From Pseudomonadota bacterium (lineage in GTDB: Bacteria > Pseudomonadota > Gammaproteobacteria > Burkholderiales > JAKAFK01): a stretch of DNA of 64,000 nt. A program made the translations under genes and the position numbers. The stretch lies in contig JAJYKK010000011.1 in the NCBI GenBank assembly GCA_021788645.1, positions 3,167 through 67,166 on the forward strand, read 5' to 3'. The number at the start of each line of letters is the position of its first letter. Within the stretch, counting starts at the first letter, position 1. The notes under the pieces were generated by a model. The model saw only the letters and a list, made by a program, of their open reading frames with translations. It searched no databases and had not been told where the DNA came from. Shown here one piece after another: positions 2,490 to 23,858 of the stretch.

Positions 2490-2507
2490 GGCCGGATCCT
2501 CGGGCAA

Positions 2508-2858
2508 TCAGCTGCCGCAACCGCCGCCGCACCCACTGCCGCAACCGGAAGAGCCGCAGCCGCCCGTGTCGGCCCCTTGCGGCGGGATGAACACGAACGA
2601 GCGATCGCCGGAGTCCATCTCGACGAGATCAAGCGTCGCGCCCGCAAGAAAGGGCTGACTCGGCTGCGCGATCAAGACGACAAACCCTTCCAATTCGACC
2701 ACGGCATCGCCCTCGCGCGCCTCGTCGAAGCCCATGCCAAATTGCAGCTCGCCATCGTCCATTTCCTTCGCGGCCACCCGCAACGCCACATCGGCAACGC
2801 CGGTACGGCTGGCTGCCTGGCGGATCTCTTCAGCCGCGCGACTCGTTACTGTGATCAT
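2508..2858 (-). CDS. dsrR: IscA/HesB-like protein DsrR with an unusual Cys/Gly-rich C-terminal tail
   Basis: MITVTSRAAEEIRQ...LRVAAKEMDDGELQFGMGFDE...FVVLIAQPSQPFLAGATLDLVE is the IscA fold pattern. It sits directly after dsrN. The tail reads GGCGSSGCGSGCGGGCGS. Confidence 0.7.
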   Translation of the reverse strand: MITVTSRAAEEIRQAASRTGVADVALRVAAKEMDDGELQFGMGFDEAREGDAVVELEGFVVLIAQPSQPFLAGATLDLVEMDSGDRSFVFIPPQGADTGGCGSSGCGSGCGGGCGS

Positions 2859-2903
2859 CCGATCGTCCTCTTCCTCAAGTGCCTGGGAATCATCCCACAG
2901 CGG

Positions 2904-4328: not shown

Positions 4329-4352
4329 GGTGTCGCCTCAGCGGCCCGGCCG

Positions 4353-5348: not shown

Positions 5349-5453
5349 GTTTGGCTCCTGTTGACCGCCGCGGGCCTTCCAGCCCGTGTGCGAGTGTGCG
5401 GGAAAGGAGCCCCTCGAACCGTCTAGACAGCCGTTCGAGACCGCGGGCCCTTC

Positions 5454-6671: not shown

Positions 6672-6750
6672 ATGACCCTCTCCCGCCTGTCCTCTGGACG
6701 CGCGGCATTGCGCGCGCTCATTCTCGCTTCAAGCTTCCCGCCGGCGCCGC

Positions 6751-7500: not shown

Positions 7501-8027
7501 TTGCTCGCTCCCAGTCCAAGCCGCCCCGTCGAGGCGGATTCGCGCATCATCAAGGAAAGCCCGTGCGCATTCGCCCCCTCTCCGTGAGGTCCCATCGGCC
7601 CGTACAAGGGATGAAACGCGGGAACCTTGCCCTTCGGCGTCGCGGAGTGGCATTCGAAGCAGGTAATCTTGACTGCCGCATAGCGGTGGCAACTCACGCA
7701 AAAATCCTGCTTAGCCCCGAACACGGCGCCATTTGGCGCATCGGCCGCATGGCATTTCACGCAATTCTCGAGACTGTCCTTGCGGTCGCGTATGCCCTCC
7801 CGCACCCACTCGGTCCGCTCCTGCAGCAGAAGCTTCATGTGATTGTGCCGCATCCACTCGGTGGGCCGCACGCAATGGCCCGGCGCCTTCAGGATGGTCG
7901 GGCCCAGGTTTCCACTGGAAAAGACAGCGCCCTGGTTCGCCCCACACACGCTCGCCGCCGCCATGAGGGCGACAAACCCCAACACTCTCGGCCCCAGACA
8001 CCGAGTGATTCGACCCAGAACACTCAT
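7497..8027 (-). CDS. dsrJ: DsrJ, periplasmic triheme cytochrome c
   Basis: ORF 7497..8153 trimmed to ATG 8027 (MSVLGRITR..., signal peptide). Three haem motifs: CVKCH, CVSCH, CFECH. Confidence 0.85.
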   Translation of the reverse strand: MSVLGRITRCLGPRVLGFVALMAAASVCGANQGAVFSSGNLGPTILKAPGHCVRPTEWMRHNHMKLLLQERTEWVREGIRDRKDSLENCVKCHAADAPNGAVFGAKQDFCVSCHRYAAVKITCFECHSATPKGKVPAFHPLYGPMGPHGEGANAHGLSLMMRESASTGRLGLGASK

Positions 8028-8285
8028 ACAATCTCCGCAAGGAAAACCTCGATTTTGCTCGAGGGGCAAGTGCGCTTGCTCTACACGCCGGTCTTTCTCC
8101 CTGAAGGACGTCCTCCGGGCGCCGGCATCGGCCCGCGAGGACCCATCACGCACTCACGCGACCGCCGTCGGCGCCGCGCACCGGTCCGGACGGCCCGTCG
8201 CGAGCGCCGCCGCGGCGCAGGAACCCGACGCCCTCGGCGGGCGGCCAACCAGGCCCTGCGCTGCGCCGCGAGGCCCGCCTCGACG

Positions 8286-10238
8286 CTAGTCCCCCATGCC
8301 CATTTGAATGTAACCCGTGGGGCACACATCGGCGCAAATATGGCAGCCGACGCACTTGCTGTAGTCGGTGTCCACATAGCGCCCGGTGCTCGACTTGTCG
8401 CGCTTGACCTTGAACACGGCGGTCTGCGGGCAATAGATGACGCAGTTGTCGCACTCGAAGCACAGGCCGCAACTCATGCAGCGCTTGGCCTCCCCGATGG
8501 CTTGCTTCTCGTCGAGCGCCTCCAGGCGTTCCGCAAAGTGCCCCAGCACCTCTTCGGGCGTCAGGTTGTCCATGCGGCGCTTGTTGCGCTCCGAGTAGGT
8601 GAAGTGCCCGAGGAACAGTTCGTCGGCGGGAATCACATACTTGTCGGCGCGGTTTTCGAAGTTGTGCATGGCGCAGTTCGTCGAATCGGTGCCGCGCAGC
8701 GGCTCCGTGCACTCGGCCGGCTGCAGCCCCTTCTCCGCCATCTTGCGTATCATGTCGAAGCTGTGCACGTCGACCTTCGGGCGTTTCTCCTGCCCCTCGC
8801 CCTTGAGGAAGCGGTCGATGCCGTCCGCCGCGATCGAGCCGTGGCCGATGGCCGTGGTGAGCAAGTGCGGCCGCAGCACGTCGCCGCCGACGAAGACGTT
8901 TTCCTTGCCGGGCACGCGGTAGTTCTTGTCCGCGGCCATCAGGCCCTTGCCGTTGTCGAACTGCTCGAGGCCGGTGAAGTCGACGGCCTGACCGATGGCG
9001 GACACGATGAGGTCGGCCGGCAGATCCTGTTCGGTGCCGGGCTTGACGACGACCTGGTTCTTCACCACTTCGCATTCGGCGACGCGCAATGCCGTCGCAC
9101 GTCCGTCCGGGCCGACGACCACGGCGATCGGGGTAAGGCTGCCGCGGATCTCGATCCCTTCGGACAGGGCATGCTCGATTTCGTGCTTGTTCGCGTGCAT
9201 CTTGTCGATCGTCGAGCGCGTGATCAGCACCACGTCCGCCCCTTCCTTGGCGGAAACGGCCGCCACGTCATGGGCCACCTGCCCCATGATCACGAACTCG
9301 GGACGATCCGTTTCGTTCTCTTTGGTGATGTGCCCAAGACGACGGGCAACCGTCGCCACGTCGATCGAGGTGTCGCCACCGCCGACCACCACGATCCGCT
9401 TTCCGACATGCTGCAGGCGGCCTTCGTTGAAGGCGCGCAGGAAGGCCACTGCATGGACGCAGTTGGGGGCCTCCGCGCCGGGGACCGGCAACGCCCGTCC
9501 GCCTTGCGCCCCGAGGCCCATGAACACCGCATCGAACTCCTGCTCGATCTGCGCCATGGTCACGTCACGGCCGACGCGCGTGTTCAGGCGTGCTTCGACC
9601 CCCATGTCGAGGATCCGCTTGATCTCGGTATCGAGGACATCGCGCGGCGTGCGGAAACCGGGAATGCCGTAGCGCATCATGCCGCCCAGTTCGGCGTGCT
9701 CGTCGAAGATCGTGCACTCGTGCCCCTTCTTGCGCAGCTGATAGGCGCACGACAAGCCGGCAGGACCGCCGCCGATGATCGCGACCTTCTTGCCCGTGGA
9801 ATGCTCCGGCTTGGCAAAACCCAGGTTGTTGGCACGCCCCCACTCGCCGATATAGTGCTCGACCGAGTTGATCCCGACGTGATCTTCCACCTGGTTGCGG
9901 TTGCAGCCGCTCTCGCACGGTGCCGGGCACACCCGTCCCATCACGGAGGGGAAAGGGTTGGCTTCGGTCAGCCGATGGAAGGCATAGGATTGCCAGTTCA
10001 CGCCCGCGGGCGGCTTTTCCATGCCGCGCACGATGTTGAGGTAGCCCCGGATGTCTTCGCCGGCCGGGCAGCTGGCCTGGCAGGGCGGAGCGCTCAGCAC
10101 ATATTCCGGGCATTTGTGCGTATGATCCCCATCGACGAAGATCTTCTCCTGCATCGACTCCCACTCATTGTCGCCGTTCTTGAAGCGCCGGAAATTCAGG
10201 GCAGATTGCTTCTTCACGTCGTCGGATGTAACTGACAT
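8286..10238 (-). CDS. dsrL: DsrL, NAD(P)H-dependent iron-sulfur flavoprotein (GltD-like)
   Basis: Start at ATG 10238, preceded by AAGGAG. GltD-like body (VAIIGGGPAGLSCAYQLRKKGH, VVVGGGDTSID). C-terminal ferredoxin domain CMSCGLCFECDNCVIYCP and CVGCHICADVCP. Confidence 0.85.
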   Translation of the reverse strand: MSVTSDDVKKQSALNFRRFKNGDNEWESMQEKIFVDGDHTHKCPEYVLSAPPCQASCPAGEDIRGYLNIVRGMEKPPAGVNWQSYAFHRLTEANPFPSVMGRVCPAPCESGCNRNQVEDHVGINSVEHYIGEWGRANNLGFAKPEHSTGKKVAIIGGGPAGLSCAYQLRKKGHECTIFDEHAELGGMMRYGIPGFRTPRDVLDTEIKRILDMGVEARLNTRVGRDVTMAQIEQEFDAVFMGLGAQGGRALPVPGAEAPNCVHAVAFLRAFNEGRLQHVGKRIVVVGGGDTSIDVATVARRLGHITKENETDRPEFVIMGQVAHDVAAVSAKEGADVVLITRSTIDKMHANKHEIEHALSEGIEIRGSLTPIAVVVGPDGRATALRVAECEVVKNQVVVKPGTEQDLPADLIVSAIGQAVDFTGLEQFDNGKGLMAADKNYRVPGKENVFVGGDVLRPHLLTTAIGHGSIAADGIDRFLKGEGQEKRPKVDVHSFDMIRKMAEKGLQPAECTEPLRGTDSTNCAMHNFENRADKYVIPADELFLGHFTYSERNKRRMDNLTPEEVLGHFAERLEALDEKQAIGEAKRCMSCGLCFECDNCVIYCPQTAVFKVKRDKSSTGRYVDTDYSKCVGCHICADVCPTGYIQMGMGD

Positions 10239-10305
10239 CTCGCTGGTCTCCTTGAAAACGTTCCCTGCGGGAAGCTCGAGGGCCGGAGGCCCCCGCATCG
10301 CCGCC

Positions 10306-11802
10306 CTATTGTTTCGTACCCAACTGAATCGCCGTGCTCACCAACTGGTGCACGCCGCCAATCATGCTCATGTCGAACCCGTAATACGGGACCACCTTGG
10401 TGAACTGCGACTTGCAAATGGCGCAGATCAGGGCCATGAAGTTCACGCCATGGTCATCGACCACCTGCTTGAGCGCTTCCATCCGGGGCAAGGCACCCTT
10501 CACCCGGACCTCCATCAGGTCATCCGTGAGCAGGCCGCCGCCGCCCCCGCAGCAGAAGGTCTTCTCCTCGATCGTGTCCGGTGCCATGTCATGGAAATGG
10601 TTCGCGACCGACTTGATGATCGCGCGCGGGATAAAGAACTGGCCGCCGGGCATATTGCCCATGCGCGAGGCGCGCGCCACGTTGCACGAGTCATGGAAGG
10701 TGATGATGCGATGATCGTTGGCTTCCTTGTCGAGCGTCAGCGCACCGCGCTGAATGAGGTCCCAGGTCACTTCGCAGACATGCTGCGGCCATGGATAGCG
10801 CTTGTCGAGGAAATCGAGCGGGCCGATCAGGGTATTCCAGAAGCTATACGCCACCCGCCAGGCATGGCCGCACTCGCCGACGACGATCCGCTTGACGCCG
10901 AGATCGAGCGCGGCCTCGCGGATGCGCATCGCCACCTTGCGCATCTGCTCATAATTCCCGATGAACAGGCCGAAGTTGCCCGCCTCCGAGGCATGCGAGC
11001 TCAGCGTCCAGCTGATCCCCGCCTGATGGAACACCTTCGCATAGCCGATCAGGCTGTCGACGTGCGGTTCGGCAAAGAAGTCCGCCGATGGCGTAATCAA
11101 CAGCACTTCCGCGCCCTTGACGTCGATCGGCAGGCGAACGTCCACGCCGGTGTCCGCCTTGATGTCCTCCTCCAGGCCGGTGAGCGTGTCTTCCAGCGCC
11201 GGACCGGGAAGGCCCAGGTTGTTGCCGATCTTGTGAACCTTGCCGATGATCTCGTTGGTGTACTTGGTGCCCACGCTGACGGTGTCGAGGATCTCGCGCG
11301 CCGCCATGGTGACCTCGGCGGTGTCGATCCCATACGGACAGAATACCGAACACCGGCGGCATTCCGAACACTGGTGGAAGTAGGTGTACCACTGGTCCAG
11401 CACGTCGCGCGTGAGGTCCTCGGCACCCACCAGCTTCGGAAAGTATTTGCCCGCGAACGTGAAGTAGCGCCGATACACCTTGCGCAGCAGATCCTGGCGC
11501 GCCACCGGCATGTTGTTGGGATCCGAGGTGCCCAGGAAATAATGGCATTTGTCGGTACAGGCACCGCAGTGGACGCAGGTGTCCATGTACACGCGGAAGG
11601 AGCGGTACTTGTCCAACAGTTCGCCCATCTTGGCGATCGCCACATCGTGCCAGTCCTCCGGCAGCTCGCCCGGGAATCCCAACGCCTGCTGGATGCCCGC
11701 ATTGGCCGGAAAGGACTTCACCTCGGCCATCGCGTTCTCTTTGAGAACCGGGATGACGGGATAGGGCTTCAGTTTAGGTACTTCGAATTTGGCTTGGGCC
11801 AC
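10306..11802 (-). CDS. dsrK: DsrK, HdrD-like catalytic Fe-S subunit
   Basis: CVHCGACTDKCH and CSECRRCSVFCP ferredoxin motifs. CCG-domain signature FCCGGGGG. Follows dsrM. Confidence 0.9.
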   Translation of the reverse strand: MAQAKFEVPKLKPYPVIPVLKENAMAEVKSFPANAGIQQALGFPGELPEDWHDVAIAKMGELLDKYRSFRVYMDTCVHCGACTDKCHYFLGTSDPNNMPVARQDLLRKVYRRYFTFAGKYFPKLVGAEDLTRDVLDQWYTYFHQCSECRRCSVFCPYGIDTAEVTMAAREILDTVSVGTKYTNEIIGKVHKIGNNLGLPGPALEDTLTGLEEDIKADTGVDVRLPIDVKGAEVLLITPSADFFAEPHVDSLIGYAKVFHQAGISWTLSSHASEAGNFGLFIGNYEQMRKVAMRIREAALDLGVKRIVVGECGHAWRVAYSFWNTLIGPLDFLDKRYPWPQHVCEVTWDLIQRGALTLDKEANDHRIITFHDSCNVARASRMGNMPGGQFFIPRAIIKSVANHFHDMAPDTIEEKTFCCGGGGGLLTDDLMEVRVKGALPRMEALKQVVDDHGVNFMALICAICKSQFTKVVPYYGFDMSMIGGVHQLVSTAIQLGTKQ

Positions 11803-11851
11803 GGGTATCCCCTTACGAATCTATCGCTTGTCCTGTGCCGTCTGGCTCTAC

Positions 11852-12580
11852 TCAAGGTTCCAGCTTGGGTGCCCACGGCGTCACATGCTGCTGCTCGCGG
11901 GCGTTGTCCGCCTGGTTGCGCGTGGGGCTGAAGAACACGCCGGGCGCATGGAGCAGCTTGCTGATGGGAAAGATCGCGAGCAAGGTCGCCACGAGAAACA
12001 GGTGCACGAGCAGCGGCGGATCGGCGGGCAGCGGCTGCCAGTCGAAGTACACGAGCCCCAGGGCGAATTCCTTCAAGGAAATGATGTCGGTGTGCGAGAC
12101 GAAATCCATGCTCATGCCGCTCAAGCCGATCCCGAGCAGCAAGACCAGCATCAGGTGATCGGAGGGGGTCGAGATGTAGCGAATGCGCGGCACGAGGAAG
12201 CGGCGCGCCCACAAGCCCGCGAGCCCGCCCACCATCAGGAACGAGGCATACTTCCCGAACGGCTGGAGGAGCACGACCCAGGTCCACACCGGCTCGGTGA
12301 AGTAGCGCAGGTGGCGCAGCAGGACCAGCAGGAGTCCGAAATGGAACATCGCGCCGAAGAGCCAGATCCACTTGTTGGATTTGAACAGGCTCTCGAACAG
12401 CACGACCTCGCGTGCGACGCGAAAACCGGCGCCGGCGGGCGTCAGCGGCGCCGGCGTGGTGGGAATCTTGAGGGGCGCGGGCGTGCGCGCATAGCTGTAA
12501 ATGCGAAATCCGACGCCGAACACGAACATCGCCGTCGCGGCGTAAAACAAACAAGCGTACGTCACCGTCAGCCAAGACAT
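11852..12580 (-). CDS. dsrM: DsrM, NarI-like dihaem cytochrome b membrane subunit
   Basis: 242 aa with about 5 TM helices. FGAMFHFGLLLVLLRHLRYF and the downstream His residues are typical of NarI/HdrE-like proteins. Confidence 0.9.
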   Translation of the reverse strand: MSWLTVTYACLFYAATAMFVFGVGFRIYSYARTPAPLKIPTTPAPLTPAGAGFRVAREVVLFESLFKSNKWIWLFGAMFHFGLLLVLLRHLRYFTEPVWTWVVLLQPFGKYASFLMVGGLAGLWARRFLVPRIRYISTPSDHLMLVLLLGIGLSGMSMDFVSHTDIISLKEFALGLVYFDWQPLPADPPLLVHLFLVATLLAIFPISKLLHAPGVFFSPTRNQADNAREQQHVTPWAPKLEP

Positions 12581-12684
12581 CAGTCAGTCTCCAGTTTCCC
12601 GGTCCGGTTGCGGAGTCGAGCGAGGGGGGCGCCCGCCGAAGCTTGACGCCTTTCCCCGCCCTCCGCGCTTTGCTTCTTCGCTTC

Positions 12685-13017
12685 TTAGATGCAGCCCGTG
12701 GGCTTGGGCAGGCCGGCGATCTTGCATGCCTGCTTGGCCGGGCCGTAAGGGAAAAGCTCGTACAGGTACTTGTTGCTGCCCTTTTCCGGGCCCAGCTTCT
12801 TGCCGATCGCCTTGGTCAGCACGCGGATGGCCGGCGCGATCTGGTAGTCGTTGTAGTACTCACGCAGGAAGTTGATGACTTCCCAGTGATTGTCGGTCAT
12901 GTCGACCTTCTCTTCCTTCGCCAGATACTTGGCAGCCTCTTCATCCCATTCGCTCAGGTTGATGAGGTAGCCCTCTTCATCCGTCTCGTAGGTCTTGCCA
13001 TTGATTTCGAAGCTCAT
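12685..13017 (-). CDS. dsrC: DsrC, sulfur-transfer substrate protein of DsrAB with both conserved C-terminal cysteines
   Basis: 110 aa. HWEVINFLREYY, YLYELFPYGPAKQACKIAGLPKPTGCI. CysB lies in QACK and the penultimate CysA in TGCI. Confidence 0.95.
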   Translation of the reverse strand: MSFEINGKTYETDEEGYLINLSEWDEEAAKYLAKEEKVDMTDNHWEVINFLREYYNDYQIAPAIRVLTKAIGKKLGPEKGSNKYLYELFPYGPAKQACKIAGLPKPTGCI

Positions 13018-13061
13018 CGCTTACTCCTCTGCGCCAAATAAAAAATCAAGAACAGCCTTTA

Positions 13062-13361
13062 TTACAGCCAGGACTGCGTGTTGGCGTGTTCGGCCACGAG
13101 ATCGACGAAGCCGCCGTAGTCCACGAGCTTGACGCCGTCCAACAGCAGGTTGTTGACACCCCTCGCTTCCACATCGGGCGATAAGGCGTAAACGCTTACG
13201 GAACCTAGGGCCGCCTTGACGCCCGCGGCGGCAATGTTGTCGCGCGTTGCGGCATAGACGCCATCTTCGATCAGCAGGATTGCCGATCCCGCCTTCGCGA
13301 GCCGCAGACAGCTCTCAAGGTTGCGGGTTTGGTACGGCGATTTATTCACGATATGCAGCAT
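13062..13361 (-). CDS. dsrH: DsrH sulfur relay protein
   Basis: 99 aa. MLHIVNKSPY...SCLRLAKAGSAILLIEDGVYAA matches the DsrH/TusB pattern. Last gene of dsrEFH. Confidence 0.85.
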   Translation of the reverse strand: MLHIVNKSPYQTRNLESCLRLAKAGSAILLIEDGVYAATRDNIAAAGVKAALGSVSVYALSPDVEARGVNNLLLDGVKLVDYGGFVDLVAEHANTQSWL

Positions 13362-13377
13362 GTCACCACCTTGAGTG

Positions 13378-13785
13378 TTAGAAGCTAATGACCACGTCTT
13401 GCGCAGCCATCAGATCCGCCATTTCCTCATTGCTGAGCACCTCAACCGGGACGATCAGGTTCTCCTCGGTCAGGCCACGCGCCTTCAGCGACTCGGCGTC
13501 GACATAAAGCTTTTCGATGTCGTAGCCTTCAAGCGCCCGGTAGGTGGGCGAGAAATTCTTGACGTCGATGCCCTTGGTCGCTTGGCCCTTGACCAGCTCG
13601 TAGACGCCGTCGTCCACGAACGCAAGGCTCACGTCCTGGTCAAACGCCGCGCTGATCAGCACCACTTCCAGCCCTTCAAGGGCATAGATCGTGCCATAAG
13701 GCGCCTTGCGGTTGACGAACATGAACTTCTTGACGCGGCCGGCGGTCTCTTCCTCAACCTCGATGCCGCCCGTACTTTCCGTCAT
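13378..13785 (-). CDS. dsrF: DsrF sulfur relay protein
   Basis: ORF 13378..13842 trimmed to ATG 13785, preceded by GAGGAGAAGG. KKFMFVNRKAPYGTIYALEGLEVVLISAAFDQDVSLAFVDDGVYEL matches the DsrF/TusC pattern. Confidence 0.85.
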   Translation of the reverse strand: MTESTGGIEVEEETAGRVKKFMFVNRKAPYGTIYALEGLEVVLISAAFDQDVSLAFVDDGVYELVKGQATKGIDVKNFSPTYRALEGYDIEKLYVDAESLKARGLTEENLIVPVEVLSNEEMADLMAAQDVVISF

Positions 13786-13795
13786 AACCTTCTCC

Positions 13796-14155
13796 TCAAT
13801 CACCGAATACCACCAGGCGGTCCGCCTGGATGCCGGACTCAACCAACTGCCCGAGCCCCGAGATCCGGAAACCCTTCGCCAGGTTCTCTTCCAGGATGCC
13901 GCGGCGCAACGCCGCCGCCACGCACACCACCAGATCGATGCCGTGCTCCTCCGCGAGCTTCGACCAGCGATTCACGATATTCCGGTCGTCCTGCGGGGGT
14001 TCGGTCAGACGCGTTGCGTTGTTGACGCCGTCGTGATAGAAGAACACGCGGTGAATCTGATGCCCCTTCGCCAAAGCCGCCTTGACGAACTGATAGGCGG
14101 TGTCCGTCGCCTGATGCGTGTACGGACCTTCGCTGATCATTATTCCGAATTTCAT
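13796..14155 (-). CDS. dsrE: DsrE sulfur relay protein (active-site Cys present)
   Basis: MKFGIMISEGPYTHQATDTAYQFVKAALAKGHQIHRVFFYHDGVNNATRL...DLVVCVAAALRRGI...FRISGLGQLVESGIQADRLVVFGD is near-colinear with Allochromatium DsrE as recalled. Confidence 0.9.
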   Translation of the reverse strand: MKFGIMISEGPYTHQATDTAYQFVKAALAKGHQIHRVFFYHDGVNNATRLTEPPQDDRNIVNRWSKLAEEHGIDLVVCVAAALRRGILEENLAKGFRISGLGQLVESGIQADRLVVFGD

Positions 14156-14216
14156 ACCCAGTAGTCTCTTTCAAGCCGCCGCGCCCAACACTGCGCCTTG
14201 GGCGCGGACGGGCCGA

Positions 14217-15287
14217 TTAGAAGCGGATGTGTGCCGATGCGTTGAGGGTAGCCCGCGCACCACGCCAATTGTCGATGTGGTACTTGGTGAACGGCAATCC
14301 GGTCTTCTCGAAGAAGCGCGGCCAGCCAATGCGGTCGATCCAGTCGGCCATGCGCTCCCACGGCTGCGCGTCATTCTTGTAGGTGTTGAGGATGTTCTTC
14401 ACCACCGCCGCCGTTTCCGGCCAACGCGGCGCGCTATTGGGCAGGCCCGCGGCCACCAGCTTGTGGAAGGTCGGGCGCGTACGCGCATTGGAGTTCTTGC
14501 CCCCCACCCAGATCGCGATCTTGGAGTGCTCGGGATCGTTGATCTGCATCGGCGGGCAGGGCGGGAAGCAGGCGCCGCAGCACACGCACTTGCGCTCGTC
14601 GACTTCCAGCGACGGCTTGCCGTTGACCAGCGCGGGGCGGATCGCCGCCACCGGGCAACGCGCCACGACCGACGGACGCTCGCACACGTTCGCGACGAGG
14701 TCATGGTTGATCTTGGGCGGCTTGGTATGCTGGATCACGATGGCGATGTCCGCCTGGCCGCCGCAGTTGATCTCGCAGCAGGACGTGGACAGCTTCACCC
14801 GGTTGGGCATCTCGCACTTGACGAACTCGTCATAGAGCTCGTCCATCAGCGCCTTGACCACGCCCGACGCATCGGTGCCGGGAATGTCGCAGTGGAGCCA
14901 TCCCTGGGTGTGCGCAATCATGCTCACGGAGTTGGCGGTGCCGCCGACCGGGAAGCCGTTCTTGGTGAGCGCATCGATCAGCGGGTTCACCTTGGCTTCG
15001 CTCGACACCATGAACTCGATGTTGGATCGCGCGGTGAAGCGCACGTGCCCGTCGCCGAACTGGTCGGCGATGTCGCACAGCTTGCGAATGGTGTAGTGGT
15101 CCATCTGACGCTGCGTCCCGGCCTTCACCGTCCATACCTCGTCGCCGCCGTCGGCGCGATGGTACAACACCCCGGGGCGCGGGTGGCTGTGATATACCCA
15201 ATGACCATAATTCTTGCGCATCACGGGATGCATGTACTGCATCGGATCCGGTGCACCGCTCTCAATTGGTTGACGCATTTCAGCCAT
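14217..15287 (-). CDS. dsrB: Reverse dissimilatory sulfite reductase beta subunit DsrB
   Basis: 356 aa. Ferredoxin insert CVCCGACFPPCP. Sirohaem/Fe-S Cys pattern STSCCEINCGGQAD. Follows dsrA. Confidence 0.9.
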   Translation of the reverse strand: MAEMRQPIESGAPDPMQYMHPVMRKNYGHWVYHSHPRPGVLYHRADGGDEVWTVKAGTQRQMDHYTIRKLCDIADQFGDGHVRFTARSNIEFMVSSEAKVNPLIDALTKNGFPVGGTANSVSMIAHTQGWLHCDIPGTDASGVVKALMDELYDEFVKCEMPNRVKLSTSCCEINCGGQADIAIVIQHTKPPKINHDLVANVCERPSVVARCPVAAIRPALVNGKPSLEVDERKCVCCGACFPPCPPMQINDPEHSKIAIWVGGKNSNARTRPTFHKLVAAGLPNSAPRWPETAAVVKNILNTYKNDAQPWERMADWIDRIGWPRFFEKTGLPFTKYHIDNWRGARATLNASAHIRF

Positions 15288-15363
15288 TATTCATTCTCCA
15301 GCAAACTATAGATGCGGACAGCGGGCTGGGCACCCGCCATCCGCGCCCCACACGATAAGCCGG

Positions 15364-16662
15364 CTAGCCGCCCGACGCCTTGCGTTCCGTGGCCTTCTCG
15401 ACCTCCTCGTCCCAACCATCCATCCGAATATACGGATTGGCGCGAGGCTGCAGGATCATGTTCGCATCGACTTCGAGGCCCATGCCTTCCAGGAAGTTCG
15501 ACAGGCCGATGCGATCGATCATCTCGCCGGTCCGCTCGTGGTCCAGCGCATTCTCGGCAAAGAAGTCGAGCATGTTGCGCGAAAGCTCGTTCAGCTTGTC
15601 GAAGTCCTCGTCCGACTCGAGCTTCATGAAGGGAATGACGACCGTTCCCATGGTCGCGCCGATCTTCAGCACGCTCTTGCCGCCCACCAGGATGGTCACG
15701 CCCTTGTCCTTGCCCGGCAACAGCGCGCCCGGCATCACGTTGAGGCAGTGCATGCAGCGCACGCAGTTGTGGTTGTCGATTTCCAGGGCCGTCGCATCGT
15801 CCAGCGCGACCGCGCTGAAGCCGTCGGTCGTGCGCGCCTCGCCCGCCTTCTTCACGGCCAGGGCCTTGCTCGGGCAGCGGGTCACGACGTTGTTGACCAG
15901 GCCTTCCATGCCGTTGGCGGCGAACCATTCGCGGGCAAGCTTCTCGTCGGTCCGGATGTTGTCGCGCCAGGTGCCGATGACCGCCATGTCGGAACGCTGA
16001 ATCGAGTTCACGCAGTCATTGGGGCAGCCGGCAAACTTGAACTTGAACTTGTACGGCAGCGCCGGGCGGTGCATGTCGTCGATGTTGTTGTTGATGACCG
16101 TCTGCAGGGCGCGCGACTCGTCGTAGCAGGACATTTCGCACCGGGCGGCGCCGACGCAGGACATCGAGGTCCGCAGGGCCGGTCCTGCACCCCCGAGGTC
16201 GAAGCCCATTTCGTTGAACTCGTCGAAGGCCGGCTGCACGTTCGCGGTGCTCACCCCCTGGAACATGATGTCGCCGCTTTGCCCGTGGAAGGCGATCAGG
16301 CCGGAACCGTGCTTCTGCCATACGTCGCACATCTTGCGCAGCAGATCGGTGCTGTAATGCATGCCGGCGGGCGGCTGGATACGCAGGGTATGGAACTCGG
16401 CCGCATCCGGGAACACGGGCTTCTCGTTCGCGTCCTTGAGCTCCGTGAAACGGGGGATGACGCCGCCGCCATAACCGAAGACCCCCACGGTACCGCCTTT
16501 CCAGTAACCTTTCTTGGTCTCGTAGGAGGTCTCGAGCTGACCCAACAGATCAACCATCATGTCGTTTTCTTGGGCGAGGCGCTTGAGCCCGGTCACAAAG
16601 CTCGGCCACGGCCCGCTTTCCAGTTGGTCAAGCATGGGCGTGTCGTGCATTTTCTTGGCCAT
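15364..16662 (-). CDS. dsrA: Reverse dissimilatory sulfite reductase alpha subunit DsrA
   Basis: ORF 15364..16794 trimmed to ATG 16662 (MAKKMHDTPMLDQLESGPWPSFVTGLKRLA). CVGAARCEMSCYD, FAGCPNDCV and ferredoxin insert CVRCMHCLNVMP. Confidence 0.9.
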   Translation of the reverse strand: MAKKMHDTPMLDQLESGPWPSFVTGLKRLAQENDMMVDLLGQLETSYETKKGYWKGGTVGVFGYGGGVIPRFTELKDANEKPVFPDAAEFHTLRIQPPAGMHYSTDLLRKMCDVWQKHGSGLIAFHGQSGDIMFQGVSTANVQPAFDEFNEMGFDLGGAGPALRTSMSCVGAARCEMSCYDESRALQTVINNNIDDMHRPALPYKFKFKFAGCPNDCVNSIQRSDMAVIGTWRDNIRTDEKLAREWFAANGMEGLVNNVVTRCPSKALAVKKAGEARTTDGFSAVALDDATALEIDNHNCVRCMHCLNVMPGALLPGKDKGVTILVGGKSVLKIGATMGTVVIPFMKLESDEDFDKLNELSRNMLDFFAENALDHERTGEMIDRIGLSNFLEGMGLEVDANMILQPRANPYIRMDGWDEEVEKATERKASGG

Positions 16663-16883
16663 GGTCAATCTCCGTAGGAAGTCTGCAGCAGTTTTATGAG
16701 ACGCTTGGATGCGCGCACTTCGCCGCGCACCCCCGCAAAACGAAAATCGGTGCCTAGGCGGCGACCGCGTCCCCGGCACTTCCGGGAACACCACCGCCGA
16801 TCAGGCCCGTCCACAACTCACCGATGGGCTGCATGTTACAGCCGTTCGCCGTTCAGCCCAATCACCCCGAGTGGTGCCTTCAA

Positions 16884-16901
16884 CCTACCCGCATGGGTAG
16901 G
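16884..16901. promoter_or_regulatory. Perfect 7-bp inverted repeat CCTACCC-GCAT-GGGTAGG in the dsrA-divergent intergenic region
   Basis: Read directly: cctaccc (16884-16890), gcat, gggtagg (16895-16901). It lies between dsrA (start 16662) and the plus-strand operon (first start 17043). Confidence 0.3.
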
Positions 16902-17042
16902 TTATGGCTCCTCCCCTAGGATGGTCGGTCTCTTCGTCTATTGATTCAGCCCAGGGGAGTCCCCATACTTGGGGGGCAGGTCAAAGCGGGATCAAGTCGC
17001 ATTCGTTCACCCCTTAATATTTTGCGTCTGGGAAGGATCGGC

Positions 17043-17267
17043 GTGGAAGAAATCACTCGCCTTCAAAAATTTGCCGCCACTCCCTTCAAGCAGGAGATCG
17101 AGCTCCAGCGCGTGGATCACGCGGCGGGGTTCACCACGTTGCGCATCCGCATCCGGGAAGGCAAGCGATTTACCATCTTCGACATCGACGAGGCCACCGC
17201 CCTCCACTGGGGAGAGGCGCTGACCGACTGGGCGCGCTCGCGAGCCCAGACAGGAGAGACAAAATAG
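17043..17267 (+). CDS. Hypothetical 74-aa protein, first gene of the dsrA-divergent operon
   Basis: Part of ORF 16941..17267. GTG at 17043 is preceded by GGAAGGA 5 nt upstream. Sequence VEEITRLQKFAATPFKQEIELQRVDHAAGFTTLRIRIREGKRFTIFDIDEATALHWGEAL. No family recognised. Confidence 0.4.
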   Translation: MEEITRLQKFAATPFKQEIELQRVDHAAGFTTLRIRIREGKRFTIFDIDEATALHWGEALTDWARSRAQTGETK

Positions 17268-17326
17268 GCTGGCCAGCAGAAGAGGGCGCCGCGCTCGCCG
17301 CGCGCGAGCCCGCCGTTACCGACCTC

Positions 17327-17902
17327 GTGTTCGACCTCAAGGGCACGCTTGTGCCCGAGGATCACGCCTACGCGCTCTTTTGCGCGCTCGAACGCGCGCT
17401 GCCCTGGCTCGGTTCCGAGGGGCAGGCGGGCGTGCATCCCATCGGCGGGGCCGAGACCGGGACCGGGGAGCTTATCTTGAATCGGCGCGCCAAACTCGCG
17501 CTACGCCTTCCGCTGCACCGCGTGGAGGACGCGAAGGCCTTGTGCGGGCGCGAGCTCGCGCTGGGCACGCATCGCGTGGGCGTGGGGCCGGCCAAAGAGA
17601 AGCCCCTGACACGGCACACCCCCCTGTATGCGCACTGCGTGGTCACGGGCAACCGGGACGAGGCGCAGTTCGCCCGCGACATCATGAAGGCGCTCGACGA
17701 CCGAGGCATCGATACCCGCTTCATCTGCGGACGCGCGCGCTCGCTTGCGACGCCGGACGGGACCGCGTGGGGCTTCAGCCTGCTCCTCCACGGATTGCCG
17801 GTGGAGCATGCGATCGCCGTTCAGGAGACGGGGATCGGGGAGTATCACCTGCTGGGATGCGGCCTGTTCATTCCGCACAAGTCCATCGCCGCCTTGGAGT
17901 AG
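17327..17902 (+). CDS. Orphan Cas6/Cmx6-like (RAMP-fold) protein
   Basis: GTG start. The N-terminus FDLKGTLVPEDHAYALFCALERALPWL and the C-terminus GIGEYHLLGCGLFIPHK fit my recollection of the subtype I-MYXAN Cas6/Cmx6 family pattern (D-x-F-x-L-x-G-x-x-L-P-x-D-H-x-Y-x-L ... G-x-G-x-x-x-x-x-G-C-G-x-F-x-P). Not verified by search. Confidence 0.45.
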   Translation: MFDLKGTLVPEDHAYALFCALERALPWLGSEGQAGVHPIGGAETGTGELILNRRAKLALRLPLHRVEDAKALCGRELALGTHRVGVGPAKEKPLTRHTPLYAHCVVTGNRDEAQFARDIMKALDDRGIDTRFICGRARSLATPDGTAWGFSLLLHGLPVEHAIAVQETGIGEYHLLGCGLFIPHKSIAALE

Positions 17903-17997
17903 GAAAGATACCCGCGCCCTCGGTCGGCCGCTGAATTTTTATCTAAACTATCGAAGATTCCCAACCCAACTATCGAAAAACAGGAGGACCACGCATC

Positions 17998-18327
17998 ATG
18001 GTGTACGTCGTTAACGGCCAAGAACTCGAAACGGACAAGGACGGCTACCTGCTGGAACCGGATTACAGCGAGGAAGTGGTTTCGGTGATCGCCGCTGCCG
18101 AAGGCATCGCCCTCACCGACCAGCACTGGGAGGTCGTCAACTTCATGCGCGACCAGTACCGCGACAATGGCCATACGCCGAATTTCCGCGTCATGCTGAA
18201 GGAGTTTTCGGAGATCAATCCGGCGGCAGACAAGAAATACCTTTATGACCTGTTCCCGATGGGACCGGCCAAACAGGCGGCAAAGGTCGCAGGACTTCCC
18301 CAGCCCTATGGCAAAGGCGGGTACTGA
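17998..18327 (+). CDS. DsrC/TusE-family paralogue lacking both functional cysteines
   Basis: Aligns by eye end-to-end with the window's own DsrC: HWEVVNFMRDQY / HWEVINFLREYY and YLYDLFPMGPAKQAAKVAGLPQPYGKGGY / [27 protein letters not shown]. CysB is replaced by Ala, and the CysA arm by GKGGY. Confidence 0.85.
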   Translation: MVYVVNGQELETDKDGYLLEPDYSEEVVSVIAAAEGIALTDQHWEVVNFMRDQYRDNGHTPNFRVMLKEFSEINPAADKKYLYDLFPMGPAKQAAKVAGLPQPYGKGGY

Positions 18328-18376
18328 ACGCGCGGCCCGGGGGCACCCCGGGCCCGGCCACAAGATTGTATCGCCC

Positions 18377-19222
18377 ATGCCCTATACGACGCTCGTCACC
18401 ACCGACGACCTCTCGGCCCATCTTCACTCGGCCGAATGGGTCGTCTTCGACTGCCGATTCACCCTGACCGATCCGGCCGCCGGACGCAGGGCCTATGACA
18501 AGGCCCACATTCCGAATGCGCGCTACGCCCATCTCGACGACGATCTGGCCGCGCCCCTGAGCGGCACGAACGGCCGCCACCCCTTGCCGGATCCGGCGCG
18601 CCTGGCGGCCAAGCTGGGCGCCTGGGGCGTGGGGCCGACGACCCAGGTCGTGGTCTACGACGACAGCTTCGGCGCCATGGCCGGCCGGCTGTGGTGGTTG
18701 CTTCGCTGGCTGGGCCACGGGCAGGTGGCGCTCCTGGACGGCGGCTGGCAGAAATGGGTGCGCGAAGGCCATGCCATCACCCTCGAGCCGCCCGCCATCA
18801 CGCCCGCCCGCTTCGAGGCGCGCGCTCGCCCCGAACTCCTGCTGGACGCCCAGGCGGTTCTGGCGGCCCTGGAGCAGGACGCCCTCATCATCGACGCGCG
18901 CGCCGATGTGCGTTTTACCGGCGAGCACGAAACCCTCGATCCGGTCGGGGGCCACGTCCCGGGCGCGGTCAACTGGCCGTACGAGGACAACCTGGACCTC
19001 GACGGCACCTTCCTCCCGGCCGACGAGCTGCGCGAACTGTATCTGGGCGTGCTCGCGGGACGACCGGCGAGCGGGGCCATCCATATGTGCGGCTCCGGCG
19101 TCACCGCGTGCCACAACCTGATTGCGATGGAAGTGGCGGGACTGCCGGGCGGGAAGCTCTATCCCGGATCGTGGAGCGAATGGGTCGCCGACCCGACAAG
19201 ACCGGTGGCGACCGGAGGCTGA
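18377..19222 (+). CDS. Two-domain rhodanese, 3-mercaptopyruvate/thiosulfate sulfurtransferase (SseA-like)
   Basis: ORF 18245..19222 trimmed to ATG 18377 (MPYTTLVTTDDL). Tandem rhodanese domains. Active-site loop HMCGSGVTACH (CGSGVTA type). Confidence 0.85.
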   Translation: MPYTTLVTTDDLSAHLHSAEWVVFDCRFTLTDPAAGRRAYDKAHIPNARYAHLDDDLAAPLSGTNGRHPLPDPARLAAKLGAWGVGPTTQVVVYDDSFGAMAGRLWWLLRWLGHGQVALLDGGWQKWVREGHAITLEPPAITPARFEARARPELLLDAQAVLAALEQDALIIDARADVRFTGEHETLDPVGGHVPGAVNWPYEDNLDLDGTFLPADELRELYLGVLAGRPASGAIHMCGSGVTACHNLIAMEVAGLPGGKLYPGSWSEWVADPTRPVATGG

Positions 19223-19228
19223 AGACCC

Positions 19229-19786
19229 ATGCGTGTCAAGACTTCTTGGTTCAACGAGGGGGGCGAGCGCGATGCCAGCGAGACGGCAAGCGTGCTCGCC
19301 TCCACCATCTGGCGGCTCGCCGATGCCGCCATCATCGACCTGTCCAAGGCGAACTACGACATCGTGACCCCCGAACGGGGCATCACGCTGATGGCCGAGT
19401 TCATCGCCTTCCTCGCCCACGTGAGCGATCGCTTGAGCGCGCAACATCTCGACGACGAGGCGCGCGCCGCCCTCATCCAGGCCCTGGGCCTGCGCCTGGG
19501 CGAGATCATGGAGGACAACGTGCGCACCCTGGTGCAGGATGACGGACGCGACTTCCGGGCAGAGTTCATCGACATGCTCAACCGGCGCGCAGCCGACTAT
19601 GCCACCTTCGCGCTGGCCTCGGAACCCAGCTTCCCGATGCTGCGCTTCCTGGGGCTCAAGATCCGTGAACGAATGGAAAGCCATGACCAGCCCTGGATCA
19701 TGGATCAGATCGCCGACATTGAAGCCCCCAAGGCCTTCGAGACCGTCAAGCGGACGGTCGACGGCCTATTGGGGGGCGTTTCCTGA
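19229..19786 (+). CDS. Hypothetical 185-aa cytoplasmic protein
   Basis: Starts 6 nt after the rhodanese stop. Codon usage matches its neighbours. Predicted helical, no signal peptide. No family recognised. Confidence 0.55.
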   Translation: MRVKTSWFNEGGERDASETASVLASTIWRLADAAIIDLSKANYDIVTPERGITLMAEFIAFLAHVSDRLSAQHLDDEARAALIQALGLRLGEIMEDNVRTLVQDDGRDFRAEFIDMLNRRAADYATFALASEPSFPMLRFLGLKIRERMESHDQPWIMDQIADIEAPKAFETVKRTVDGLLGGVS

Positions 19787-19821
19787 AGCAGGACGCCCGA
19801 TTTCAAAGGTGAGGACACGGC

Positions 19822-20730
19822 ATGGTCTTAGCAACGCACTCCGGCCTGAAAGCCGCCACGAGCCCCTTCTCGCTGGACGCCGAAGCGGAATACGATCGGT
19901 GGCGCGCCGACAAGCTGCGCCATTACCCGAGCAGCATCGAAGCGCTGATCGTGGAGATCCGAGATCCGATGACGCTCCAGCCCGCCGAGCACGATGCCAT
20001 CGTGTCCCGGATTCGCCGCGCCAACATGGCCATTTATGCCGCCCCCGCCGCCCTCGGGGAGAACAAGGCCGTCCCCAGGGAGCTCGGGCGCCAGTTCGGA
20101 CTGACCCATCTCGACGGCAACCTTCTGGCCGACGATGACGCCATCAGTTCGCTCACCGTGGCGAATGGCGCGCCGCGTCGCGATTTCATTCCCTACACCA
20201 ATTCCGCCATCAAATGGCATACCGACGGCTACTACAACCCGCCGGAGAACAGGGTGCAGGCCATGGTGCTGCACTGCGTGCGCCCCGCCTTGCAGGGGGG
20301 CGCGAACCAGCTGCTGGACCACGAAATGGCCTATCTCCTCATCCGCGAGCATGAGCCGGAGTACATCCGCGCCTTGATGGCGCCCGACGTCATGACCATT
20401 CCCGCGCGCGCTGAGGACGCAGGCATCGCCCGCCCGGCGCAGGCAGGGCCGGTATTTTCCGTCACCCCGGAGGGCCGCCTGCACATGCGCTACACGGCAC
20501 GCACGAAAAGCATCGAATGGAAGGACGACGCCCTCACGAAAGCCGCCGTGGCCTTTCTGGAGGCGCTGCTCGCCAGCGACCTGCCGTATATTTTCCGGGG
20601 GCGCCTGGAAGCCGGCCAGGGACTCATCTGCAACAATGTGCTGCATGACCGCTCCGGCTTCAAAGACGACGAGGCCCGCCCGCGACTGCTGTACCGCGCG
20701 CGTTACCACGAGCGGATTGCAGGCTCCTGA
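19822..20730 (+). CDS. TauD/TfdA-family Fe(II)/2-oxoglutarate-dependent dioxygenase
   Basis: 302 aa. HxD iron ligands in AIKWHTDGYYN. C-terminal CNNVLHDRSGF...RLLYRARY fits the distal His and the 2OG-binding Arg. Confidence 0.7.
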   Translation: MVLATHSGLKAATSPFSLDAEAEYDRWRADKLRHYPSSIEALIVEIRDPMTLQPAEHDAIVSRIRRANMAIYAAPAALGENKAVPRELGRQFGLTHLDGNLLADDDAISSLTVANGAPRRDFIPYTNSAIKWHTDGYYNPPENRVQAMVLHCVRPALQGGANQLLDHEMAYLLIREHEPEYIRALMAPDVMTIPARAEDAGIARPAQAGPVFSVTPEGRLHMRYTARTKSIEWKDDALTKAAVAFLEALLASDLPYIFRGRLEAGQGLICNNVLHDRSGFKDDEARPRLLYRARYHERIAGS

Positions 20731-20760: not shown

Positions 20761-21842
<1,082 letters not shown>

Positions 21843-21846
<4 letters not shown>

Positions 21847-22481
21847 GCGATACGCCGTTGCGCGAGGCCCTCCTCGACGCCGCACGACGCATGGCGGCCG
21901 ACGGACTCAACCGGGGCGCCTCGGGCAACTTGAGCGTGCGCGTCGCGCACGGTTTCCTCATTACCCCAAGCGGGCTCGACTACGATGAGATGACCCCGGA
22001 CGACCTGGTGCAGATGAATCTGGACGGCACGTGGCGCGGGCCGCGCCCCCCTTCGAGCGAATGGCGCTTCCACCGCGACATCCTGGCCACGCATCCGGAG
22101 TTGGGGGCCGTGGTCCACACCCATTCGACCTTTGCCACGACCCTTGCATGCTTGAGCATCACCGTTCCCGCCTTCCACTACATGATCGCGGTCGCCGGGG
22201 GCAAGGACATCCGTTGCGCGCCCTATGCGACATTCGGCACGCAGCGACTCTCCGACCATGCGCTGGCGGCCCTCCAGGGGCGCCATGCCTGCCTGCTCGC
22301 CCACCACGGCATGATCGCGACCGGGCCGACGCTCAAGGCGGCCGCGGACCTCGCCTATGAAGTGGAAGCGCTCTGCGAGCAATACTGGCGAGCGTATCAG
22401 TTGGGCACGCCACCCTGCCTGTCGGATGAGGAAATGGACATCGTGCTGGAAAAATTCAAGGATTACCGGCGCCGCGCCTAG
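21843..22481 (+). CDS. Class II (zinc) aldolase/adducin-family protein, MtnB/Ald2/FucA-like
   Basis: Start overlaps the mtnA stop (ATGA). GASGNLSVRV...ITPSG...PSSEWRFHRDIL...AVVHTHSTFATTLA carries the metal-ligand His residues. Confidence 0.8.
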
Positions 22482-22662: not shown

Positions 22663-23295
<633 letters not shown>

Positions 23296-23321: not shown

Positions 23322-23858
23322 TCACTGGCCGTCCTCGTAGACGCCGGGCCGCCCTTCGTACCAATGGGTTCGCACCTTGCATCTCTTGATACCATCGTCG
23401 GCGTAGCAACCCCGTTTAGCCATCTGGTCAGCCCCGTTCAAGGTTTTGTATCCGAAGGCGCCAGTGACGGACGCTTTGTTCACGTTCGTATCCCAGCCGA
23501 CGGCCACGGCGCCGTACCCTCCCTCGGCCTTTGCGCTTTCGGCTGTTCGGCAGGCGACGCCTCCTTGTCGAGTGCAGGCGCCCAAGGCGCAAAGCTCCGT
23601 CTTGACCAGGTTCAGCCCATTGATACAAATGCCGAACTTCAGCGTGGCGTCGTCGACGGCGATCGCGTCATACAACGTCTTCGCCTGAAGCTGTTGGGGT
23701 GAAGGGTGGCCGCGCAATACGGGCAGCGAACCATCCGGGCAGGTTCCCGGGTAACGGGAGTAGGTCTGATTTCCGCAGGCAAAATCGGCACGAGCCTGGG
23801 CGTGTCCGGCCATCGCTGATAGCAGCGCCGCGGCCAGGCACAGGACTTTTCGTATCAT
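23322..23858 (-). CDS. Secreted Cys-rich protein, DUF4189-like
   Basis: Signal peptide MIRKVLCLAAALLSAMAGHAQA. GYGAVAVGWD...TGAFGYKTLNGADQMAKRGC...CKV resembles the DUF4189 pattern as recalled. Confidence 0.5.
   Translation of the reverse strand: MIRKVLCLAAALLSAMAGHAQARADFACGNQTYSRYPGTCPDGSLPVLRGHPSPQQLQAKTLYDAIAVDDATLKFGICINGLNLVKTELCALGACTRQGGVACRTAESAKAEGGYGAVAVGWDTNVNKASVTGAFGYKTLNGADQMAKRGCYADDGIKRCKVRTHWYEGRPGVYEDGQ

Follow-up and report, generated by a model that had tools for sequence, protein, structure and literature searches.

A predicted accessory operon of the oxidative Dsr pathway, carrying a solo Cas6-family gene, lies divergent from dsrA in betaproteobacterial sulfur oxidisers

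Introduction

The oxidative (reverse) Dsr pathway is a major sulfur-oxidation route of freshwater, soil and groundwater Betaproteobacteria, and to our knowledge almost nothing is known about its regulation in these organisms. In sulfur oxidisers, the cytoplasmic relay Rhd-TusA-DsrE2, described by the Dahl laboratory, feeds sulfur into DsrEFH and DsrC. Two other dsr-encoded proteins, the IscA-like DsrR and the large, unrelated DsrS, have been implicated in post-transcriptional control of dsr in Allochromatium vinosum. Here, we analyse a 64-kb stretch of contig JAJYKK010000011.1 from a Pseudomonadota bacterium (hereafter the window), in which six genes, called g1 to g6, are arranged divergently from dsrA. 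The first encodes a small protein of family DUF6967 and the second a protein of the Cas6 family.

This operon shares several features with the Rhd-TusA-DsrE2 relay: it includes a rhodanese gene and, in some genomes, TusA with active cysteines, it is linked to dsr, and tusA-dsrE2 genes adjoin it in two loci (L085 and L087, see below). It differs from the relay in that no DsrE2 is encoded within the operon, the rhodanese is of the two-domain mercaptopyruvate sulfurtransferase (MST) type, and the relay-like genes are variable and dispensable. Its core is instead a pair of proteins with nucleic-acid-binding folds, which is absent from the known relay. Like DsrR and DsrS, the operon brings small dsr-linked proteins for which a role in tuning dsr expression rather than in catalysis can be proposed; there is, however, no sequence relationship, and those two are encoded at the end of the dsr operon whereas the genes described here form a divergent one.

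An earlier annotation of the window (the first-pass annotation) had called the system undescribed. In agreement with this, literature searches, in which subscription journals were poorly covered, returned no account of a Cas6 homologue, of DUF6967 or of the operon next to dsr, and no such Cas6 case is listed in a review of CRISPR exaptations (PMC8730458). The single proteins are new members of known families, with the exception of g5 and the DUF6967 protein, and their combination and context match no described system.

An operon head-to-head with dsrA

The genes and the control region that separates them from dsrA are as follows:

15364-16662, minus strand: dsrA (open reading frame and translation; tblastn, 70-99% identity to the divergent gene in 79 of 80 loci)
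16663-17042: control region shared by dsrA and g1, 380 bp (spacer of 262-619 bp in 72 related loci; several conserved boxes in the alignment)
17043-17267, plus strand: g1, DUF6967 protein of 74 aa, GTG start (PF22295, E 4e-29)
17327-17902 from the first canonical start, GTG (probable start ATA 17264), plus strand: g2, solo Cas6/Cmx6-family RAMP protein (PF09559, E 1e-55)
17998-18327, plus strand: g3, DsrC paralogue without any cysteine (PF04358, E 2e-35)
18377-19222, plus strand: g4, two-domain rhodanese with the MST-type active site CGSGVTA (two PF00581 stretches; NCBIfam)
19229-19786, plus strand: g5, protein of 185 aa, unnamed family
19822-20730, plus strand: g6, TauD-family Fe(II)/2-oxoglutarate (2OG) dioxygenase (PF02668, E 1e-21)

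The first-pass annotation had reported six same-strand genes at these coordinates, divergent from dsrA over 380 bp. This layout was confirmed by the open reading frames and the sequence, and the family assignments proposed for the proteins held. The nominal gaps from g1 to g6 (59, 95, 49, 6 and 35 nt) had been computed correctly, except that the 59 nt between g1 and g2 are probably coding, as judged by the comparison of 74 sources described below.

Relatives were sought with an alignment of g2 relatives, one genome per species, which gave 591 loci, and the best 80 (L001-L080) were analysed; genes were counted in each locus by tblastn with the window proteins. These loci come mostly from betaproteobacterial sulfur oxidisers and allied lineages (Sulfuricella, Sulfurimicrobium, Sulfurirhabdus, Sulfuriferula, Thiobacillus including T. 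denitrificans DSM 12475, Gallionellaceae and Hydrogenophilales). The remainder are labelled only Proteobacteria, Pseudomonadota or Gammaproteobacteria bacterium, and one is labelled Rhizobium sp. The latter, the metagenome-assembled L071, carries a Thiobacillus-like dsr region together with the module, and its contig is probably mis-binned. Five distant loci (L081, L083, L085, L086 and L087), reached via DUF6967 homologues, complete a set of 85 related loci.

Both g2 and g3 were found in all 80 loci, and dsrA is divergent from the module in 79. Among the other members, g5 is present in 77 loci, the rhodanese gene g4 in 74 and g1 in 73, where it lies directly 5' of the Cas6 gene; the TauD gene g6 occurs in 52 of the 80 and in four of the five distant loci. 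Within the module of Sulfuricella sp. T08, the operon stops after g5. In all five distant loci the DUF6967-Cas6 pair is again head-to-head with dsrAB, and the genes downstream differ:

L081: DsrC-like protein, g5, TauD
L083 and L085: tandem TusA (both CPGP cysteines), g5, TauD; g3 missing
L087: DsrC-like protein, 71-aa protein, tandem TusA, g5, TauD
L086, whole variant at 1966-7064: DUF5619, DUF6967, Cas6, DsrC-like protein, hemerythrin, rhodanese, HD/HD_5 protein, hemerythrin

Since the downstream genes vary among the distant loci, the invariant unit is DUF6967 plus Cas6 beside dsrA. A sulfur-carrier-like protein (the cysteine-less DsrC and/or tandem TusA) nearly always comes next, and the 185-aa protein usually follows. 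The rhodanese and TauD are frequent, yet dispensable, members. Thus the six-gene module of the first-pass annotation is complete in the window, where all six genes are present, and narrows to the DUF6967-Cas6 pair across genomes, g4 and g6 being optional. The gene-order comparison that it had proposed shows the module to be conserved next to dsrA (79 of 80 loci and five of five distant ones), and this arrangement is far beyond chance. On the sequence evidence, we consider it an operon divergent from dsrA that betaproteobacterial sulfur oxidisers have conserved as an accessory to their oxidative (reverse) Dsr pathway, and that most likely controls or services that pathway.

Two of the distant loci show further links to sulfur genes. 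In L085, g5 and the TauD gene overlap by 4 nt, and in both L085 and L087 tusA-dsrE2 genes adjoin the module. A gene for a FadL-like channel also adjoins it in these two loci. In the metagenomic L086, two hemerythrins and the HD/HD_5 protein stand in for g5 and TauD, a hint of input from the sensing of oxygen or of a signal. The 182-aa protein at the end of this variant was considered as a g5 counterpart and rejected, as it is not homologous.

A Cas6-family protein outside CRISPR-Cas

Against TIGR02807 (cas6_cmx6), the equivalog for Cas6 of type I-MYXAN, g2 scored 137 bits (cutoff 98.85) with a full-length match, and it also matched six PADLOC Cas6 models. A profile of 20 g2 relatives matched the solved type I-B Cas6 8fcj_B with E 3e-26. 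The glycine-rich loop of RAMP proteins (GhGxxxxxGhG) is read in g2 as GIGEYHLLGCG before FIPHK, with flanking glycines that are invariant in the 20-sequence alignment. The invariant H37 (GVHPIGG) aligns with GIHPI (the GxHPI motif) of 8fcj_B and is a candidate catalytic histidine. The dsr-linked Cas6 proteins are 42-57% identical to the window copy (90% for L001, the exception), with 47 invariant columns among 20 sequences, and are under constraint and not decaying. Two cysteines, in RFICG and GCG, are invariant in this clade.

No CRISPR-like array was detected in the window or in the 80 loci (81 sources in all) by Tandem Repeats Finder and a k-mer spacing scan, so that the description of this Cas6 as an orphan stands. 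In the search for defence systems, PADLOC matched nothing but its Cas6 models. Only dsr and module genes were seen beside Cas6, flanks beyond the module not having been systematically annotated.

Compared with the Cas6/Cmx6 proteins of types I-MYXAN and I-B (TIGR02807, PF09559, 8fcj_B), which are the endoribonucleases that process crRNA, g2 is thus alike in full-length homology, glycine-rich loop, GxHPI histidine and size (about 190-215 aa). It differs from the CRISPR-associated ones in several respects: there is no array nearby (0 of 81 sources), identity to the CRISPR-linked Cmx6 proteins of cyanobacterial plasmids is 24-31%, it is paired with DUF6967 and sits beside dsrA, and its clade has invariant residues of its own, such as RFICG. 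A genuine I-MYXAN locus, that of Synechocystis 6714 pSYLB, consists of cas3-cmx8-cas7-cas5-cas4/1-cas2 with a 12-repeat array of GTGTCCAAACCATTGATGCCGTAAGGCGTTGAGCAC. By homology and genomic context, then, g2 is a genuine member of the Cas6 family that is not CRISPR-associated. Public genomes name the dsr-linked proteins 'type I-MYXAN CRISPR-associated protein Cas6/Cmx6', a misleading label which could inflate CRISPR-Cas counts in sulfur oxidisers. A Cas6 strictly conserved in a metabolic context without a nearby array would, if true, be a clear recruitment of a RAMP protein to a non-defence role.

The closest plasmid Cas6/Cmx6 homologue of g2 (31% identity) is encoded on the Gloeobacter morelensis plasmid pGMOR1 (L088, 8962-9753), outside any CRISPR-Cas locus. 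Its neighbours are hypothetical genes, two genes of the PAPS-reductase family, a cupin gene and DNA methyltransferase genes, and it may represent a second, independent non-CRISPR use of the Cas6/Cmx6 family.

The DUF6967 partner and its junction with Cas6

The AlphaFold model of g1 (pLDDT 93) consists of four antiparallel strands followed by a long helix. Its top Foldseek neighbours are PUR repeats (human PURA, fly Pur-alpha and a Borrelia homologue) and the PC4-like single-stranded DNA binders SP_0782 and YdbC, with a probability of about 1, TM of 0.5-0.67 and weak E-values (0.08-1), at 7-19% sequence identity. The best structural neighbours are all binders of single-stranded DNA or RNA. Accordingly placed at the level of fold, g1 models as a PUR/PC4-like single-strand nucleic-acid binder, which is a lead and not a family membership. 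It shares with PUR (Pur-alpha) and PC4-like proteins (SP_0782, YdbC) a predicted beta-beta-beta-beta-alpha topology over about 65-70 residues; it has no detectable sequence similarity to these proteins, in which nucleic-acid binding is dimeric, and matches them with E of at least 0.08. Of the two proteins that the first-pass annotation could not place, the 74-aa one now belongs to DUF6967 with this PUR/PC4-like model and the 185-aa one is still without a family.

The junction between g1 and g2 was compared in 74 sources. In 65 of them, the reading frame of Cas6 can be followed back without interruption to the codon overlapping the stop of g1. The linker measures 53, 59, 62, 65 or 71 nt, with indels only in multiples of three, and encodes a conserved motif, (K)IGW[LP], or MSWxWP in Thiobacillus. 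At the overlap, 39 sources, the window among them, have ATA (as ATAG), and Thiobacillus has ATG or GTG (as ATGA or GTGA). In the window, a GGAG lies 7 nt 5' of ATA 17264. Eleven loci have no ATG, GTG or TTG anywhere 5' of the conserved AVTD motif, and in L051 an in-frame TGA occurs two codons before the ATA. Because the frame is open and conserved, indels come in threes and canonical starts are missing in the 11 loci, g2 most likely starts at ATA 17264, overlapping the stop of g1. An alternative is a -1 slip on A-AAA-TAG that would fuse g1 to g2. Under either the ATA start or the slip, g1 and g2 appear to be translationally coupled. An apparent AUA start that overlaps an upstream stop is also of interest for translation itself.

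The downstream proteins

The DsrC paralogue g3 shares 45% identity with the DsrC encoded in the window itself, and residues 5-105 could be aligned both to 1yx3, the DsrC of A. vinosum, and to 1sau. Its C-terminal arm reads AGLPQPYGKGGY; the arm stretch of the window DsrC aligns with QAAKVAGLPQPYGKGGY in g3, so that both redox cysteines, CysB and the penultimate CysA, are replaced. The arm is AGLPKP[YF]GKGGY in 79 of 80 loci, and cysteine is absent from the last 12 residues in all 80. Having no cysteine there, g3 is predicted to be unable to carry sulfur on its arm. Against the TusE equivalog NF008562 it scored 95 bits (cutoff 191), and it lacks the conserved C-terminal cysteine on which TusE, in the sulfur relay for tRNA thiolation, receives sulfur from TusBCD. 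DsrC proteins without cysteines are a recognised class, and the name DsrC/TusE/RspA family is in use (PMC8477390). Since both functional cysteines are missing, g3 is assigned from its sequence to the cysteine-less, RspA-type class. Within this family (PF04358), it has the same fold and length and keeps the arm region LFPxGPAKQA...AGLPxP. It differs from DsrC, the sulfur-carrying substrate of DsrAB, in that it could not form the persulfide, trisulfide or disulfide of the Dsr cycle, and its arm is two residues longer with the conserved [YF]GKGGY end.

In g4, the active-site motif CGSGVTA is located at residue 238. The score against the SseA equivalog, 132, is below the cutoff of 250, and g4 is therefore assigned at the family level only.

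No Pfam, NCBIfam or PADLOC match was obtained for g5. Its AlphaFold model (pLDDT 85.6) is a six-helix bundle for which no fold match was found in the PDB. The family comprises 378 cluster representatives; each of the best 150 measures only 85-234 aa and matches over a single stretch, with no sign of a fused domain. Distant g5 homologues occur in L083. This unnamed 185-aa helical family, together with the cysteine-free DsrC and its GKGGY tail, provides new leads for Dsr biochemistry.

The motifs of g6, HTD at 133, the distal histidine in LHDRS at 274 and RLLYRAR at 288, correspond to the HxD...H iron triad and the arginine for 2OG. Remote likeness was observed to TmpA, TMLH and BBOX. No substrate can be assigned, because these best characterised relatives score far below their cutoffs.

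A conserved element in the dsrA-g1 spacer

The control region contains a perfect palindrome and two other conserved boxes, the latter seen in an alignment of 73 spacers:

16883-16902: palindrome AACCTACCC-GCAT-GGGTAGGTT, with the core TACCC-N4-GGGTA at 16886-16899, a candidate operator or hairpin
16833-16839: conserved box ATGTTAC
16858-16866: conserved box CCAATCACC (CCATCATTC in relatives)

TACCC-N4-GGGTA occurs once in the 64 kb of the window. In the set of 72 related spacers, the strict element gave 35 matches in 27.5 kb of dsrA-g1 spacer against none in the remaining 1.16 Mb of the loci, and a relaxed form gave 54 matches in the spacers against one elsewhere. The element is also present in all five distant loci. 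Its half-sites, TAC(T)CC and GG(A)GTA, occur one to five times per spacer, and their number, spacing and orientation differ between clades. The distance from the element to the ATG of dsrA is fixed within clades (138 nt in nine loci of the Thiobacillus clade and 137-140 nt in most others), whereas the distance to g1 is variable. As a short GC stem with a tetraloop, the element resembles the GCC-GTAA-GGC hairpin of the true I-MYXAN repeat in architecture, not in sequence, and no covariation was found.

The boxes ATGTTAC and CCAATCACC could possibly be back-to-back promoter elements. Boxes resembling -10 and -35 sites, picked manually, would allow the element to lie 5' of the two promoters or else within the 5' end of the module mRNA; they were not relied on. 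With Rfam at the gathering threshold, the only match in the window was the tRNA at 50901.

In the Thiobacillus clade (L060, L064-L080), a strongly conserved leader element lies about 115-180 nt 5' of g1 and is composed of AGAGTATTAAAATATTGTTGCAAACGCAAG, a variable GC hairpin and TTGAAA. This layout recalls that of a CRISPR repeat (CAAAC ... hairpin ... GTTGA; compare the I-MYXAN repeat in L090).

Control of dsr or handling of sulfur

We tentatively favour, at somewhat short of an even chance, a reading in which the DUF6967-Cas6 pair recognises the spacer element and tunes the expression of dsr and of the operon, with sulfur-carrier-like and O2-dependent proteins as input. The pair, produced in a coupled fashion, would bind the element as a sequence-specific nucleic-acid-binding unit, the element acting either as a leader-RNA hairpin or as promoter DNA in a melted or cruciform state, and would by this route set the expression of dsr and of its own operon. 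The downstream proteins would make this control responsive to the cell's sulfur and redox state. Candidate inputs are a DsrC look-alike with a docking arm but no sulfur carriage, the rhodanese or tandem TusA, the helical g5 and the O2-dependent TauD (hemerythrin and HD proteins in one variant). A control layer at the nucleic-acid level had been suggested by the first-pass annotation; the model of g1, the apparent coupling of g1 and g2 and the spacer-specific element lend it some support, whereas no convincing RNA covariation or strand bias was seen.

A number of observations weigh against control by the pair. By appearance, four of the six genes encode enzymes or carriers and not regulators, and where tandem TusA takes the place of g3, as in some genomes, its active cysteines are retained, which suits sulfur transfer better than sensing. 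The PUR/PC4 likeness of g1 is one of fold only, with weak E-values. In most lineages only the inner 4 bp or so of the palindrome are conserved, and its arms are conserved in sequence instead of covarying, the left arm being kept as the right arm drifts. The palindrome folds better as dsrA-sense RNA in 57 of 76 instances; these, however, are mainly one inherited variant, with true mismatches on its flanks. The leader hairpin of Thiobacillus shows no significant covariation, its pair counts not exceeding those of shuffles (73-210 of 500). A scan of the spacer for consensus promoters found no canonical sigma-70 site, and when the control regions of the window and L078 were searched permissively against Rfam, the matches did not rise above chance level and included no CRISPR-DR family.

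A bolder form of this proposal, which we regard as doubtful, holds that a Cas6 endoribonuclease has left CRISPR immunity and, with a PUR-like partner, become fixed as a housekeeping device for RNA recognition. It would bind or cut one cognate hairpin in the control region of dsr, and set expression of this central sulfur-oxidation operon according to sulfur or oxygen status, for which a cysteine-free DsrC decoy and an O2-dependent dioxygenase would serve as readers.

The main rival, a substantial minority possibility and also raised in the first-pass annotation, is that the operon is an accessory route for sulfur handling or repair. Rhodanese, tandem TusA, the DsrC-like protein, the helical protein and TauD would mobilise sulfur, deliver it or salvage it for the benefit of DsrEFH, DsrC or DsrAB, for example by persulfide loading or by release of sulfite from an over-oxidised or organic sulfonate. 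The Cas6-fold and DUF6967 proteins would then be protein scaffolds or carriers, not nucleic-acid binders. The intact MST-type active site of g4, the full set of Fe/2OG motifs in g6, both CPGP cysteines in the tandem TusA of L083, L085 and L087, the tusA-dsrE2 neighbours in L085 and L087 and the overlap of g5 and TauD in L085 are all consistent with such a route, as are the two invariant cysteines (RFICG, GCG) of the dsr-linked Cas6 clade. On the other hand, it is precisely the two proteins with nucleic-acid-binding folds that are invariant in the module, and the enzyme-like genes are dispensable, the rhodanese being missing in 6 and TauD in 28 of the 80 loci. The arm of g3, lacking cysteine, offers no sulfur carriage, and a spacer-specific element needs a binding partner. 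Furthermore, TauD requires O2, whereas many hosts, among them T. denitrificans and Sulfuricella, also oxidise sulfur anaerobically.

Ordinary regulation at the DNA level, by g3 alone, seems improbable to us. In this case g3, as an RspA-type protein with the helix-turn-helix-like motif of the DsrC fold, would bind the palindrome between the divergent promoters, and the DUF6967-Cas6 pair would have a separate role. DsrC of A. vinosum reportedly binds DNA upstream of dsrA. The element could be read in this sense, as an imperfect palindrome with half-sites conserved in sequence like those of operators, at a position between the two genes that is compatible with an upstream operator, and cysteine-less relatives of DsrC are named RspA in the DsrC/TusE/RspA family (PMC8477390). 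Nevertheless, L083 and L085 keep the element though tandem TusA replaces g3, and the variation of half-site number, spacing and orientation between clades is atypical of a dimeric operator of fixed design; the invariant DUF6967-Cas6 pair would, moreover, be left without a role.

Finally, the idea that Cas6 was left over from a CRISPR-Cas locus and is decaying, or that it adjoins dsrA by chance or hitch-hiking and without function, agrees with the score of g2 above the curated I-MYXAN cutoff and with its public name, but is effectively refuted by the conservation of the module beside dsrA (79 of 80 and five of five loci) among Cas6 proteins only 42-57% identical between genera, with 47 invariant columns in 20 sequences, by the array-free loci (81 sources) and by the 24-31% identity to CRISPR-linked Cmx6.

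Whether it acts by control through the DUF6967-Cas6 pair or otherwise, this operon, conserved at the dsr promoter, is a concrete handle that can be tested, with defined genes, a cis element and the cultivable hosts Thiobacillus denitrificans, Sulfuricella and Sulfuriferula.

Neighbouring genes

A reverse-type dsr operon lies on the minus strand of positions 1-16662, with dsrA first and running leftwards in the order dsrABEFHCMKLJOP...N, as judged by Pfam and the open reading frames. After dsrC come DsrM-, DsrK-, DsrL-, DsrO- and DsrP-like genes, a family-3 glycosyltransferase-like gene and a DsrN-like amidase gene. On the other side, the strand of the module continues beyond g6, so that the run of six genes reported earlier is present, without being the end of the same-strand series:

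14217-15287, minus strand: dsrB, member of the reverse-type dsr operon
12685-13017, minus strand: canonical DsrC with both cysteines, ending PKPTGCI
20761-21846, plus strand: MtnA, 30 nt after g6
21843-22481, plus strand: class II aldolase, overlapping MtnA by 4 nt

MtnA (S-methyl-5-thioribose-1-phosphate isomerase) and the class II aldolase resemble the dihydroxyacetone phosphate (DHAP)-shunt salvage route for methylthioadenosine. They were considered as module members and rejected, since they occur alongside the module in only one of the 80 loci.

In two distant loci, L081 (10824-13931) and L085 (10553-13534), a recurring set is found 3' of the module, with a 490-aa protein carrying a Fer2 domain, a Peptidase_S24 (LexA-like) protein, small open reading frames and DUF6866. 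Within the dsr operon of the window, the family-3 glycosyltransferase-like gene (anthranilate phosphoribosyltransferase-like; 4353-5348, minus strand) is located between the DsrP-like and DsrN-like genes, and a pyridine-nucleotide-disulfide oxidoreductase gene (1014-2507) comes next after DsrN. Further downstream of the aldolase gene, an open reading frame on the minus strand (22663-23295), without a Pfam match, contains at 22964-23010 a perfect (TGCTGT)n repeat of the CAG type that translates into about 20 consecutive glutamines, and is followed by a gene for a DUF4189 protein at 23322-23858.

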